A stretch of 64,000 bases of DNA from Thermodesulfobacteriota bacterium (GCA_963675595.2 CAXXLZ010000001.1:1408001-1472000), one strand, 5' to 3'. Positions 11,969 to 35,825 are shown, counted from the stretch's first letter. Numbers and translations: made by a program. The notes: generated from the letters alone by a model not told the origin.

Positions 11969-12016
11969 TTATAAACATTTCTCTCCCACGCCGCAGAATT
12001 CGGAAAAGTTTATATA
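11969..12016. promoter_or_regulatory. Divergent BRE/TATA-like promoter pair
   Basis: Minus strand GAAATGTTTATAA (11981-11969) lies ~25 nt before ATG 11945. Plus strand GAAAAGTTTATATA (12003-12016) precedes GAGGTGA and ATG 12051. Confidence 0.5.
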
Positions 12017-12050
12017 CACCAGGGCCTTACCAAGTCCCGAGGTGATACCG

Positions 12051-12194
12051 ATGCCAAGACCCTATAAGTGCCCATATTGCGGCGCAACCCAAAGCCACTG
12101 GAAAGGATACAGGCCCCTTGTCCAGGGAAAAGTCCGGCTCCGGATGTGCACCAAGTGCCACCGGAAGTTCACGACTCGAGTTAAGATCGAATAA
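12051..12194 (+). CDS. Small Zn-ribbon protein (47 aa, InsA-like pattern)
   Basis: MPRPYKCPYCG...KGYR...RLRMCTKCHRKFT, with SD GAGGTGA at 12039-12045. Confidence 0.6.
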   Translation: MPRPYKCPYCGATQSHWKGYRPLVQGKVRLRMCTKCHRKFTTRVKIE

Positions 12195-12209
12195 CCACCG
12201 GACGGACCG

Positions 12210-13484
12210 TCAATGAAAACCGCCGAACGGCCCGGCACCAAATCCTTCTCTCGATAAGAACCGGTTGAGGGTTTCCTTGGGGAGCGACCTCGATATTTCT
12301 CTTGTCTGGCCGTACCTGCCGCGTGATATCAGCCGAGCGTTGATCAGCCCATAAAGGTCAAGGGAACCAATGATGTCCGAGAACCTCCGTTGCGTGAGCG
12401 GCCTGACCCGTTCCAACTCGCAGAAATTAGCGTATCGATCATAGGCTTCGCCCGTAGTGACCCGTTTCGAAGTCTTGGCCAGAAGATCGTAGCAGGAAAG
12501 AAGCGCAAGTTTTTGCTGAGGAGCGAGCGCCCGAACCATCTCTTCGGTCTTGTCCATCTCCAATCTGTGCTCAGCCATATCCACGATTTCTTCGGACAGC
12601 CTGCCGCCGGTTTCCTGCGCCACCTTGGCCGACTTTGATAGAAGCTCCACCGCCTTTCTCGCATCACCGGTGTCCCGCGACGCCAATGCCGCGATCTTTC
12701 GAACAGCAGCCACGTCCACCTTTGACTTGTCCAATGCCTTTTCCACTCGAAGATTCAGAATTTCTATCAAATCCAAGGCGTTATAGGGTTCAAAGAGCAT
12801 GTCCGTCTTCTTGAGAACACTCAGAATCCGCGGGTCCAGCATCTTGTCCCAGTTCAGTTTGTTCGTGACCATGATAAGAACCAACCGGCAGGGAATCTTT
12901 CTCGGAAGGGTCTTTCCGAGGAAGGTAATAAACTCGTCCGCATTGGGCTTGATGTTATCCGCCTCATCAATCAGGAGGCACAAGAAACCCTGGAACCGGT
13001 TCAGCTCTTCGATGATTCGTTCCTGCATCTGATCAATGGGAATGCCTTTCCTGTAGGTGCGAATCGAGTCATTGAGTGCTCTTGCAAGTTCATTCAACGC
13101 TCCGAAAGAGGACCTGGGCGAGGTCAAGTCCACGTATCTGTACTGAAACCCGATCGACTGAGTCCGGCAATATTCCTGGAAAGTTGAAAGCACGTGAATG
13201 AGGGAAACCGTTTTCCCTGAACCCGTAGGCCCGAAGACCAGCAAAGAACTCGGATGATCGCCGTCCAGGATGGGAGTCAGATGACAGACGATGCGTTTCA
13301 GCTGCTCTTCCCGGATATTCCGATCAAAAATCTCCTTCAGAACCGAAGTCCGCTCTTCTTCAGGCAACTTCTCGTCGTCCAGATAGTTGGGGTTCAAAAT
13401 AAGGCGATGATTCTTCTGTGAGTCATGCAATGTGCGGATGAATTGCAAGGAAGCTTCGGAATGATCTCCACCGGACATTTTCAA
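12210..13484 (-). CDS. cdc6: Orc1/Cdc6-family (archaeal-type) replication initiator AAA+ ATPase
   Basis: Walker A GPTGSGKT, Walker B LLIDEAD, LDPRILS, F.PYNA.DL.EIL..R, sensor-II GDARKAVELL, and a C-terminal wHTH TTGEAY..Y...C......LTQRRFSDII.SL..YGLI.....SRGRYGQTREI. Confidence 0.92.
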   Translation of the reverse strand: MKMSGGDHSEASLQFIRTLHDSQKNHRLILNPNYLDDEKLPEEERTSVLKEIFDRNIREEQLKRIVCHLTPILDGDHPSSLLVFGPTGSGKTVSLIHVLSTFQEYCRTQSIGFQYRYVDLTSPRSSFGALNELARALNDSIRTYRKGIPIDQMQERIIEELNRFQGFLCLLIDEADNIKPNADEFITFLGKTLPRKIPCRLVLIMVTNKLNWDKMLDPRILSVLKKTDMLFEPYNALDLIEILNLRVEKALDKSKVDVAAVRKIAALASRDTGDARKAVELLSKSAKVAQETGGRLSEEIVDMAEHRLEMDKTEEMVRALAPQQKLALLSCYDLLAKTSKRVTTGEAYDRYANFCELERVRPLTQRRFSDIIGSLDLYGLINARLISRGRYGQTREISRSLPKETLNRFLSREGFGAGPFGGFH

Positions 13485-13505
13485 GCGATTCTTCTACAGG
13501 ACATC

Positions 13506-13520
13506 TATAAATAGTTTTCG
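13506..13520 (-). promoter_or_regulatory. BRE/TATA-like promoter of cdc6
   Basis: CGAAAACTATTTATA lies ~24-30 nt upstream of the TTG (13484) / ATG (13478) start. Confidence 0.45.
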
Positions 13521-13568
13521 GTAATAAGCCCTGTCGTTACTTGAAAGCGAACCGGATTTTAAGTGTGG

Positions 13569-33551: not shown

Positions 33552-33992
33552 ATGAAAAAGACATCGTTGGTCGCCCTGTTCCTGATCATCTCCCTCGGCT
33601 GCGGAAAACGAACCGTGGTGAGGGAACGAACGATCATCCGATACCAACCCGTTCCTGTGAAAGAGGAAGTGCGGGTGGTGGAAAAGTCGCCGGTGAACCA
33701 TTTTACGGTGAATTATCCCAAGCAGACCGCGGACGGCTATTTTGAGACCGGCAAGATCGCCTACGGAAACTGTAACTTTCAGGAAGCCATGCGATGTTTC
33801 GCCGTTGTGCTGAACAGCTCGGCTCCGCCGGAGATCATCGCTGAGTCCTACGCCTACATGGGAGCCTGCTGTTTCTACGAAGGAAGAATGCGAGAGGCTG
33901 AGATGTTTTGTGAAAAGGCCAGGAAGACCCATCCTCAAATCAGACTGCGCCGGGAGGAATTCCCCAGAGAGGTGATCGAATTCTGTAACTGA
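33552..33992 (+). CDS. Putative lipoprotein with TPR motifs
   Basis: MKKTSLVALFLIISLGC lipobox, YF..G..AY...NFQEA..CF and AY.GAC.F..GR..EA. Confidence 0.7.
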   Translation: MKKTSLVALFLIISLGCGKRTVVRERTIIRYQPVPVKEEVRVVEKSPVNHFTVNYPKQTADGYFETGKIAYGNCNFQEAMRCFAVVLNSSAPPEIIAESYAYMGACCFYEGRMREAEMFCEKARKTHPQIRLRREEFPREVIEFCN

Positions 33993-34080
33993 AAAAGCCT
34001 CCTTTCTCCCTCAAAAGGGCTCCAGCTGAGCCCTTTTCTTATGCCCGAAAGATGGGAAATAATCTCATTATTACTCCAAT

Positions 34081-34110
34081 ATAAACTTACATAAACCTGC
34101 ATAAACTCAC
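34081..34110. repeat. Three 10-bp-phased ATAAAC repeats in an AT-rich spacer
   Basis: ATAAACTTAC ATAAACCTGC ATAAACTCAC. Confidence 0.7.
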
Positions 34111-34201
34111 CAAAGACATAAAAAACCATACGAAAACTTGTTTTCGTGTGATATAACCTCATAGCTTTAATTATCTCACATAATCGACGACACAACCAAA
34201 A

Positions 34202-34286
34202 GCCCGCCGGAGGCGGGCCCCGCCCGCAGGGCGAGGGGCGTTGGGTTCGTTAGAACCCGACTCACCGTGAACCCCATGGGGTTCAC
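34202..34286. repeat. Cluster of four GC-rich hairpins, including a 20-bp perfect palindrome
   Basis: GCCCGCC-GGA-GGCGGGC; GCCCCGCCC-GCA-GGGCGAGGGGC; GGGTTC-GTTA-GAACCC; GTGAACCCCATGGGGTTCAC. Confidence 0.85.
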
Positions 34287-35020
34287 CAACCCATTCCCAT
34301 CAAATTTCCATCGAACCGCTCCGATCCGAAAAGACCCCGAAGTTCCTTCTCCGGTCTTCCTCGGATCATAAGGTGACGATTTCCCAATCCCTAAAATCCG
34401 AATCTTCGGACATACCAAAACCAACCCCACCCGATCACACCACCGTCGCGGAACCAATCACTCATCTTCCCGGCGGTAGGATACTCCAACCGGAAGCAGC
34501 CGCTCCGGACCACTCTCCCCTTCCAAAGAAGCATGCAAGCACCCGTTCAACGGATCGCATGCGCAACCCAAGTGTTCTTCCCGGTCACCGGCACACTTCG
34601 GAACCAGGGTCTTCAGTGTCACACGAAACCCGCCCTTTTACATGAATAGCGCCACCCGGCTCGTACCGATACGACCCGGCATGGCCGCTTCATCGAGCGC
34701 TTGCCCAAACGAAAGCCGCAACGGCTCGCCCTTCTTGAAAGCGCTCAACGGTAATTCCCGCTCGCGGCACGAATTGCCGGCGACAATCATTACCACAAAC
34801 ATGGCCATGAAAAGGACGCCACTGACCGGCCTCATGGCCTTGCCCATCTCGCTCCGAGATGAAAAACTTTCGGCCGATGCCCGGAGCACCGGACATCCGA
34901 CCGCAAAGCTTATTAAGGAGCCGTCCTCAACTCTCCATACGCAGAGCGCATAGAGGAGAGCAACCATTCAAACGACTCCGTCGCCGCTCTGCCGAAAAAC
35001 CGACGTTCTAACACAACGAA

Positions 35021-35575
35021 TCAGGGGCCCTGCTGCCCCTGCCAAATCTCCGCCGCTTTCTCGACGAGCCCGACAAGCTCCCTTGCCTTGCTGCGATGCT
35101 CGAAAGCCTGCTCATGATCGCGAGTTACTTGGGACAGTCTCATGTGCTCCACTGCCGGGCCCATGAACTCATCCTCGATAAGAAACATCGCTCTCCCCAG
35201 CGTGTTCCGCTTTCCCTCTTCATGGGAAAGACAGCTGTGCATGATCGCCAAGTCCCGAATCCCCTCGAGCACTTTCCCGATCCTGTAGCGCCGTTTGTCC
35301 ACTTCGAACTTCCCGCAGACTCGCTCGAAGTCCCAGGTATTGAAAGCGCTCTCAGAATCCGACCAGTCGAACCATGCTCGGGTCTGGCCCTGTTCAGCTA
35401 CCCGCATGATGGGCTCGTGCTCGCTCTGCACATACCAGGCGATGAATTCCAGGGTCTCGTCTTTCTCGTCGTCGCTGTATCCAAGCCAAGGATCGCTGTT
35501 TCGTAAAATCTTCAGTCCTGCGGGTACCGGTGCGTCGAGTACGCTATATTCAACTACAACTTGTTCTTGTTTCAT
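35021..35575 (-). CDS. Hypothetical protein
   Basis: 184 aa ORF with a GGAGG SD. Confidence 0.65.
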   Translation of the reverse strand: MKQEQVVVEYSVLDAPVPAGLKILRNSDPWLGYSDDEKDETLEFIAWYVQSEHEPIMRVAEQGQTRAWFDWSDSESAFNTWDFERVCGKFEVDKRRYRIGKVLEGIRDLAIMHSCLSHEEGKRNTLGRAMFLIEDEFMGPAVEHMRLSQVTRDHEQAFEHRSKARELVGLVEKAAEIWQGQQGP

Positions 35576-35825
35576 GATGCCTTCCTCCCGGGGTCCGATT
35601 CATTGACCGGACTCTCTCGGCTGTGTATTCACCGAGAGAGTGGAGTTCTGCATCCAGGAAAACAGCAACGCCAAACCCTGATAAACCGATCCGCCAACGG
35701 ATGGAACTTGTTTTCAGGCGACCCTTGAAGAGGGGAAAGGCTTAAATAGGGCTTTCGGCGATGGGGCCGAATCCCATTTATGCCTTTAGCCGTGAAGAAA
35801 ACGGTAGTTACTCGTCACCGATACC

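Follow-up and report, generated by a model that had tools for sequence, protein, structure and literature searches.

An integrative element with an Orc1/Cdc6 gene

The stretch of DNA analysed here (64,000 nt from Thermodesulfobacteriota bacterium, GCA_963675595.2, CAXXLZ010000001.1:1408001-1472000; hereafter, the window) contains the core of a mobile element, several of whose genes are preceded by A/T-rich boxes that resemble archaeal promoters. Comparison among copies and relatives of the element supports these motifs as real, conserved elements in promoter position. The features of the locus are collected in Table 1. The host is a bacterium, with a genome of 6.79 Mb in 3 contigs that is 98% complete and has 56% G+C.

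Comparison with the host genome by blastn returned three further copies of the core at 88–98% identity. Each copy is accompanied by a second conserved module, 16–42 kb from the core, and the cargo between the two varies. For the copy in the window this left module occupies the interval between 4.4 and 0.6 kb to the left of the window and begins just past a tyrosine integrase gene, which adjoins recA and alaS; an Xis-like open reading frame (ORF) is also found at the left end. PAS histidine kinases (278–10338) separate the two conserved parts. The core, the left module and the integrase therefore describe a large integrative element with variable cargo. In the ranges tried, the two ends of this copy showed no terminal direct repeat of 12 nt or longer.

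The product of cdc6 matches Pfam Cdc6_C at 1.6e-24, together with lid and AAA domains, and Sulfolobus Orc1-1 in the PDB (2qby_A) at 2.8e-51. A conserved module (Zn47-g271-g141-g145) adjoins this gene. The score of Zn47 against PF22811 (27.9 bits) lies just over the cut-off of 27.2, and the protein is without the ATP-cone. Homologs of g271 (n=82) are all named at most 'hypothetical protein', and a precomputed zinc-finger or zinc-ribbon Pfam family is attached to 2 of the 82. The structure model of g271 has a predicted local distance difference test (pLDDT) score of 79.8, and its Foldseek matches are to winged helices only (E ~0.01), the best being domains of ~65 residues (the ScpA/Scc1 C-terminal domain and AspA).

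Table 1. Boxes, genes and other features of the element. Positions without a prefix count from the first letter of the window; distances are the nucleotides between hexamer and ATG or Shine-Dalgarno sequence (SD).
Feature	Position	Strand	Description or basis
g271 box GAAATGTTTATAA	11969–11981	-	TTTATA (11975–11970), 24 nt, ATG 11945 (CAT 11943–11945), no SD
Zn47 box GAAAAGTTTATATA	12003–12016	+	TTTATA, 24 nt, GAGGTGAT (12039–12046), ATG 12051
cdc6 box CGAAAACTATTTATA	13506–13520	-	TTTATA, 27 nt, ATG 13478, no SD
TTTATAA box, PRiA4_ORF3-like gene	14551–14557	-	23 nt, AAGGAGG, ATG 14515
g63 box TTTAAATA	18975–18982	-	TTTAAA, 24 nt, ATG 18952; missed in the first-pass annotation
Operon-head (g173) box GAAAGCTTTTTATATA	31733–31748	-	TTTATA (31740–31735), 23 nt, ATG 31711 (CAT 31709–31711), no SD
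Orphan AAAGCTTATTAA	34905–34916	+	kept in 4 copies; in or beside ORF; no promoter geometry
GAAAGGCTTAAATA	35735–35748	+	inside near-invariant non-coding ~120 nt (35700–35825); no ATG or SD at +23–27
GAAA-N1-4-TTTATA in left modules	C1:1404499; C2:879633; C2:1700210; C2:4233614
Conserved element core, one of four copies	10348–36496		blastn against genome
Four core copies	C1:1418348-1444496 (window's); C2:903715-927179; C2:4271208-4298435; C2:1658055-1628647
Left module plus integrase of this copy	G000:C1:1402502-1407361 (= L020:4502-9361)
Tyrosine integrase	L020:4502-5614		Pfam Phage_integrase, 1.2e-25
g271	11130–11945	-	271 aa, SD-less; two zinc ribbons and C-terminal winged helix (alignment, model)
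Zn47	12051–12194	+	47 aa; small NrdR-like zinc ribbon, candidate DNA-binding regulator (Pfam PF22811)
cdc6	12210–13478	-	Orc1/Cdc6-family AAA+ initiator (Pfam, PDB matches)
Origin-like region	13569–13945		inverted TTCCGGTGGAA pair flanking AT-rich stretch
Group II intron	21482–24018		within AAA ATPase gene (20999–21481 and 24019–25032); Rfam RF00029 at 21482–21571
HerA/FtsK-like ATPase, then Cas4-like PD-(D/E)XK nuclease	28286–31029
g173	31190–31711	-	first gene of long minus-strand operon; SD-less; N-terminal repeats

Boxes at set distances from element genes

A first-pass annotation of the window had listed seven strings, one of them an orphan, as archaeal-like promoter motifs in which a B recognition element (BRE) precedes a TATA box. 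Direct reading of the window finds all seven (7/7) in place. For haloarchaeal promoters, a passage in PMC2151090 gives a CGAAA BRE, a TATA box whose centre lies at -27/-28 and, at -10/-11, a WW element, and a passage in PMC2699501 gives TWTATATA as the TATA box of M. jannaschii, with a 9-nt BRE upstream. Among archaea with leaderless mRNAs, the distance from box to gene start is ~26 nt, or 22–24 nt in H. salinarum, according to part of PMC6028130.

The consensus of the element's boxes is an A-rich CGAAA-like flank, 2–4 nt and TTTAWATA, and it is this flank upstream of a TTTAWATA-type box that resembles the BRE-TATA promoters of haloarchaea and methanogens (GeneMarkS-2 'group D'). Complete 8-bp boxes of the TTTAWATA/TWTATATA type are TTTATATA (12009 and 31733) and TTTAAATA (18975). 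The flank reads CGAAA or GGAAA at cdc6, Zn47, g271, g173 and g390 and in relatives, and stands 2–4 nt off the box, where an archaeal BRE, which is purine- or A-rich and gives the promoter its direction, would abut it. A further likeness to the archaeal promoters is that the box precedes leaderless starts by 22–24 nt and that leaderless and SD-bearing genes are mixed.

Two sites had been described as lying ~25 nt from an ATG without an intervening SD, and this is borne out: the distances are 24 nt to the ATG of g271 and 23 nt to that of g173, with no SD-like 5-mer between. The operon headed by g173 runs on the minus strand from 31711 down to ~19026. The box of g63 (a 63-aa ORF, 18761–18952) directly follows the hairpin and T-run that end the upstream operon, and the box of g390, a membrane protein gene left of the window, stands 23 nt before its ATG (L020:6536). 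Within the intergenic DNA of the core, every box at a gene start is followed either by an ATG at 23, 24, 24 or 27 nt or by an SD whose first base is at 23 or 24 nt; in both boxed genes with an SD, Zn47 (24 nt) and the PRiA4-like gene (23 nt), it is thus the first base of the SD that falls at the ATG-like distance. The gene starts are corrected accordingly, as ORF callers would extend g271 to ATG 11978 and g173 to GTG 31795.

Sequence and spacing of the listed boxes match archaeal values, and to this extent the description as BRE-TATA-like promoters in front of element genes stands; three of the strings do not fit it. The motif AAAAAACTTATAAA (14544–14557, plus strand) overlaps a minus-strand TTTATAA box. 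Nothing is found at +24 towards the plus-strand gene beyond it (ATG 14616, SD GGAGGTG), and the box is more likely to belong to the PRiA4_ORF3-like gene on the minus strand. The motif at 35735 lies in a stretch (35700–35825) that is conserved above the level of the flanking ORFs in all four copies and contains a hairpin at ~35749–35776; the start codon of the next ORF (ATG 35826) reads ATA in one copy. This stretch could be a small RNA or a site of recombination or transfer. The third is the orphan at 34905.

Conservation of box and spacing

The box of Zn47 is identical in 4/4 copies of the element. At g271 the box and the 24-nt length of the spacer are likewise kept in 4/4, while the spacers themselves share just 8–19 of 24 bases, and at g63 the box is kept in three copies whose spacers differ. 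In the fourth copy the operon is headed by another gene, and there CGAAAGCTTTAAA is followed by 24 nt and an ATG, with another spacer and an in-frame TAG upstream.

The same arrangement is seen over larger distances. Orthologs of g390 in three other genomes (24–25% protein identity) have (C)GCAAAATATTTAWA, exactly 23 nt and an ATG, and their spacers share 8–9 of 23 bases with that of the window. At five diverged loci, orthologs of Zn47 are preceded by CGAAAnn-TWTTTAWA, 23 nt from an invariant CCGAGGTGAT; together with the window, the distance from box to GAGGTGAT is 23–24 nt in 6/6 loci. In another carrier genome a non-homologous gene for a lipoprotein with a clear signal peptide is preceded by CGAAAAGCATATAA and 23 nt, and the g271 ortholog of that genome shows CCGAAGGTTTTATATA, 23 nt and ATGGAATGC. 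The metagenomic relatives L052 and L053 show the same pattern at 25–26 nt from the hexamer. At L021 the box of g271 is 48 nt from the start, and an SD and a GTG start are present. Upstream of cdc6, an A/T box with an A-rich 5' flank is found 18–64 nt before the ATG in 22 of 24 related loci; it mostly reads TTTAAATA, TTTATATA or TTAAATA, with a modal distance of 35–36 nt from the first hexamer. What rises above chance is positional and comparative.

Frequency and position of the motif

Enrichment of the motif over background, raised in the first-pass annotation, is not seen in the window. TTTAWATA occurs 3 times against 1.15 expected (13 of 100 shuffles reach 3) and RAAANNTTTAWA twice against 0.53 (9 of 100 shuffles reach 2), both within chance. 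The pattern used in that annotation is loose, and count enrichment therefore does not carry the case. Genome-wide, GAAANNTTTATA occurs 12 times in 6.79 Mb, with 9 of these in the four copies of the element (1.6% of the genome); since the copies are paralogous, this concentration amounts to ~2–3 independent sites. The composite GAAA-N1-4-TTTATA occurs 33 times, with 16 in the core copies and 4 in the left modules, and these sites are likewise paralogous. Outside the four copies, exact GAAAACTATTTATA, GAAACTATTTATA or GAAAAGTTTATA is found in AT-rich contexts of the host genome (G000) at C1:1162377, C2:3713187, C2:938187 and C2:2964416, and these may belong to other, unrelated mobile DNA.

Outside the copies, distances from TTTAWA to the ATG of ORFs of 80 aa or more have a flat distribution (~6 per nt bin), versus peaks at 22–24 and 27 nt inside them. 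In one copy, 6 of 26 boxes are followed at 22–27 nt by the ATG of an ORF of 50 aa or more, compared with 45 of 1593 elsewhere (Fisher p = 1.0e-4); for ORFs of at least 80 aa the numbers are 5 of 26 and 34 of 1593 (p = 2.8e-4), the distance window of 22–27 nt having been picked after inspection of the data. One of the six positional matches, at 14471 (d = 22), concerns an internal ATG; chance probably accounts for it. The remaining five are separate genes, namely g390 (23 nt), g173 (23 nt), g271 (24 nt), g63 (24 nt) and cdc6 (27 nt), and none of their spacers contains an SD-like 5-mer.

The origin-like region beside cdc6

In archaea an orc1 gene adjoins an AT-rich unwinding element between inverted origin recognition box (ORB) repeats. 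The cdc6 gene of the element similarly abuts an AT-rich stretch between inverted, ORB-like copies of TTCCGGTGGAA. The two copies of this word are identical (plus strand 13575–13585, minus strand 13931–13941), with (ATATA)n and TATATAGAAAC repeats between them. A related ORB-like word, AAATGTCCGATGGAA, overlaps the start codon of cdc6. The whole arrangement spans 13465–13945, and relatives in other genomes have the same layout, with ORB-like words (TTTCnTGTGGARG) after the cdc6 box. The position of these words, after the box and across the gene start, suggests that cdc6 is autoregulated by its own initiator protein. The element differs from archaeal Orc1/Cdc6 origins in that its version sits in a bacterial integrative element and its protein is just 33–36% identical; the origin role is predicted from sequence.

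A proposed reading of the boxes

The first-pass annotation had suggested looking for TBP and TFB elsewhere on the replicon. A profile search of the whole, 98%-complete host genome gave no match to TBP (PF00352) or to TFIIB/TFB (PF00382), whereas four archaeal control genomes were positive; TBP was not found in five further carrier genomes either. The absence of these factors sets the host apart from the archaea that use BRE-TATA promoters, and the reader of the boxes must therefore be bacterial RNA polymerase.

The reading that we favour, with a confidence that falls a little short of even, is that the boxes are core promoters of the element's own, with a start ~24 nt downstream, read by bacterial RNA polymerase via a non-standard factor. 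Transcription would start ~24 nt after the TTTAWA hexamer. The mRNAs of the leaderless genes g271, g173, g63 and g390 would begin at AUG and that of cdc6 would carry a very short leader; those of Zn47 and the PRiA4-like gene would begin at the SD. Bacteria are able to translate leaderless mRNAs. The polymerase would be steered by something beyond the ordinary -35/-10 contacts of sigma-70, for which an element-encoded DNA-binding protein appears likeliest, and Zn47, g271, g141 and g145 are candidates.

Phage T4 provides precedents among mobile-element promoters in bacteria. Its middle promoters have a MotA box centred near -30 and depend on sigma appropriation, with a good sigma-70 -10 element retained, and its late promoters consist of an A/T 8-mer, TATAAATA, read with gp55, with the start ~6 nt after the 8-mer. 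The precedent lies in a factor-bound box near -30 that stands in for the -35 contact, or in the use of an A/T 8-mer alone. Family scans of the element's proteins turned up no MotA-, AsiA- or gp55-like family.

Several observations weigh against the proposed reading. In addition to the window counts, the post hoc distance window and the internal ATG at 14471, about half of the element's transcription units are without a box, and the boxes of g63 and the PRiA4-like gene are without the CGAAA flank. The 8-mer is 1–2 nt nearer to the ATG than in canonical archaeal promoters. Among relatives the distance from the cdc6 box to the ATG spreads from 27 to ~60 nt, and L014 and L017 have an additional in-frame ATG at 11 nt from the box, a position compatible with a start 7 nt downstream. 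We know of no bacterial holoenzyme whose start lies 24 nt past an A/T box. Neither family scans of the element nor, for g271, Foldseek found a TBP-, TFB- or sigma-like protein, and Pfam, NCBIfam and PHROGs scans of the element's proteins lacking an assigned family gave nothing transcription-related except the zinc ribbon of Zn47. The possibility that g271 is a split TFB or a sigma-like factor was rejected after Foldseek returned no PDB match at E <= 0.001.

Were transcription to start where the spacing predicts, bacteria would host a promoter class of archaeal architecture that textbook holoenzymes do not explain, and the setting of start sites across domains would become directly testable. 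The boxes and their reader would also be a candidate orthogonal promoter/factor pair.

Comparison with bacterial promoters

The strongest of the competing explanations, though an unlikely one, is that the boxes are -10-like elements of sigma-70 or an alternative sigma factor, with a start 6–8 nt downstream and an archaeal look that is coincidental. Leaders would then be ~16 nt for the SD-less genes and ~29 nt for the SD-bearing ones. The host is equipped for such promoters, with 9 sigma-70 region-2 matches in a family profile search and no archaeal factors. Some boxes read TATAAG or TATAAA, near to TATAAT, and the 11-nt distances at L014 and L017 would suit such a start. In E. coli, moreover, A/T-rich archaeal promoters can direct transcription through their TATA box.

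The first-pass annotation had allowed for bacterial -10 boxes mimicking the motifs, and the sequence comparisons disfavour this. A scan with the sigma-70 consensus returned 16 sites in 10300–20300 (7.5 expected) and 6 in 27000–36600 (5.3 expected), and none of these 22 sites coincides with a gene-proximal box; they are confined to the AT-rich origin region and to AT-rich coding stretches. The same scan found no TTGACA-like hexamer 16–18 bp upstream of the boxes. Just 3 of the 22 cdc6-upstream boxes overlap a TAnnnT hexamer, and the recurrent TAWATA ends in A where a sigma-70 -10 element needs T. Within that element, A-11 and T-7 are the important positions. Inspection by eye of copies and orthologs shows no conserved hexamer between -12 and -7 relative to the SD-less ATGs.

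Nor would a start close to the box explain the ATG or SD at +23/24 across diverged spacers, or the translation of SD-less 16-nt leaders in a setting where strong SDs precede other element genes as well as the host's recA. Strong SDs precede many of the element's internal genes, and nearby host-type genes carry ordinary bacterial signals (GATAAT and AAGGAGG at recA, AAGGAGG at the integrase). A crude baseline was also obtained: an SD-like 5-mer precedes the first ATG in 963 of 3791 long ORFs, compared with 275 of 3791 for a control window. It was set aside as too rough, because the first ATG often differs from the true start. Bacterial leaderless genes, as outlined in part of PMC6028130, have a Pribnow box 6–8 nt (~10 nt) from the start codon. 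The element resembles the bacteria of this type (GeneMarkS-2 'group C', Mycobacterium, Deinococcus) in having SD-less genes at the head of operons, and differs from them in that its sole conserved element is 23–24 nt away, with nothing conserved at -12 to -7. Should starts nevertheless prove to lie 7 nt after the box, the locus would provide an instructive Pribnow mimic with unusual SD-less leaders.

Three other bacterial arrangements were dropped by eye. As a -35 hexamer, the box would place the start inside the ORF and no -10 element follows; sigma-54 promoters (-24/-12) would require GG and GC, which are missing; and an ECF-type (extracytoplasmic function) GAAAC-N16-CGT fits the two GAAAAC promoters only.

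It is also conceivable, if rather improbable, that the boxes are operator sites to which a regulator of the element, such as Zn47 or g271, binds over weak non-consensus promoters, providing one switch for all early units. An NrdR-type operator pairs a zinc-ribbon DNA-binding protein with a palindromic box. Zn47, whose match to the NrdR zinc ribbon is only just above cut-off, sits under the best box and is divergent from g271, which has zinc ribbons and a winged helix. The motif precedes several units of the element and is found almost nowhere else in the genome, and the cdc6 promoters have, in addition, the ORB-like sites after the box. An operator would need a promoter too, however, and neither the scan nor inspection by eye reveals a conserved -10 or -35 at either geometry; moreover, a fixed distance to ATG or SD belongs with the selection of start sites and not with repression. 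Operators and the element-specific promoters proposed above are compatible, in that the same protein could be the recruiting factor.

Lineage of the element

That these are true archaeal promoters, read by TBP and TFB in an archaeal host in which the element resides or recently resided, appears very unlikely. The BRE-TATA sequence and geometry would fit, as would an Orc1/Cdc6 gene with an ORB-like origin and a HerA-like ATPase whose best NCBIfam row, below cut-off, is the archaeal CedD. The distribution of the element, however, is bacterial. Relatives of cdc6 are 60–93% identical (781 proteins at E <= 0.001 among 8000 candidates scored), and those that are named all come from Desulfobacterota, being assigned to Thermodesulfobacteriota or to 'delta proteobacterium NaphS2'. 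Among the matches listed, the genome loci are from Desulfatiglandales, NaphS2, Desulfosarcina variabilis, Desulfarculaceae, Desulfopila and uncultured relatives; Desulfosarcina variabilis str. Montpellier and strain NaphS2 are carriers in culture. The gene is present in 4 of 401 sampled genomes of the phylum, this one included, with 4, 4, 2 and 1 matches, the single match being 29% identical. By comparison, in 401 archaeal genomes (the phylum of a Methanosarcinaceae metagenome-assembled genome) an Orc1/Cdc6 match at E <= 1e-30 was found in 384, the best of them 36% identical. PLSDB holds 298 plasmids that match Orc1/Cdc6, all at less than 60% identity, with haloarchaeal plasmids in the top rows at 26–30%. 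IMG/VR returned no relative of g271. A protein 63–65% identical to g145 is found in three Desulfobacterota genomes, and no g145 homolog was found in the single archaeal genome tested.

Two proposals of the first-pass annotation can be judged from these results. Recent transfer from archaea is not supported, given the spread of the cdc6 family and its promoter across several lineages of Desulfobacterota at ~60–64% identity, the presence of four copies at 88–98% identity within a single bacterial chromosome set, where they carry bacterial cargo and an integrase adjoins recA, and the low identity of the best archaeal match. A shuttle lifestyle finds no support in the searches for TBP and TFIIB in the host and for TBP in the five other carriers, and no archaeal, plasmid or viral copy came to light in the archaeal sample, PLSDB or IMG/VR. 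Box and spacing are maintained among bacterial residents, and selection on them therefore acts in bacteria. On the reading favoured here, the promoter signals are old and have been maintained within a lineage of bacterial elements, and are not remnants of a recent transfer. The earlier interpretation was thus half right, in that the promoters are archaeal in style yet belong to an old bacterial lineage. The element represents a widespread Orc1/Cdc6-bearing family of sulfate-reducer-type bacteria; a literature search returned no description of such elements or of archaeal-type promoters in bacteria.

A broader proposition, which we consider doubtful but worth stating, is that this Desulfobacterota lineage keeps an archaeal-style 'information module', comprising Orc1/Cdc6, an ORB-flanked origin and BRE-TATA promoters with leaderless starts ~24 nt downstream, in cells without TBP and TFB. 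Such a module would imply an element-encoded initiation factor, new to science, that positions bacterial RNA polymerase from a box at -38 to -24; less likely, it would point to an element able to express in both domains.

Chance, with A/T-rich strings chosen post hoc from AT-richer intergenic DNA, deserves next to no weight: it would suit the window counts, the loose pattern and the two of six motifs and the orphan that are without promoter geometry, but box and spacing are conserved in four copies and in distant elements, positions are enriched and the composite is rare elsewhere in the genome, and while the orphan at 34905 may be a chance occurrence, this explanation is already contradicted for the boxes at 11975, 12009, 13511, 18982 and 31740.

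Other features of the element and its surroundings

For the HerA/FtsK-like ATPase, the top NCBIfam row is the archaeal DNA-translocating ATPase CedD at 3.3e-20, far below the cut-off. The N-terminus of g173 (31540–31680) contains a tandem peptide repeat (..YGSGASYL..) whose number varies between copies, and proteins at this position measure 173 aa in two copies, 184 aa in one and 161 aa for the gene of the fourth. An Atlas search with g145 returned its own Thermodesulfobacteriota cluster plus weak leads only (AF_0843, HTH_CodY), and rows for Anthrax-tox_M (E 0.07) and Ntox10 (E 0.036) among the element's proteins were ignored as chance-level.

The group II intron encodes a reverse transcriptase/maturase/HNH ORF (21571–23433) and occupies the same insertion site in 4/4 copies; in one copy the intron segment seems to be tandemly doubled (C2:4281042-4290283). 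Beyond the core, the window contains insertion sequences at 50005–51394 and 59164–61057, which have at least 14 and at least 20 blast matches genome-wide, respectively, at 99.8–100% identity.

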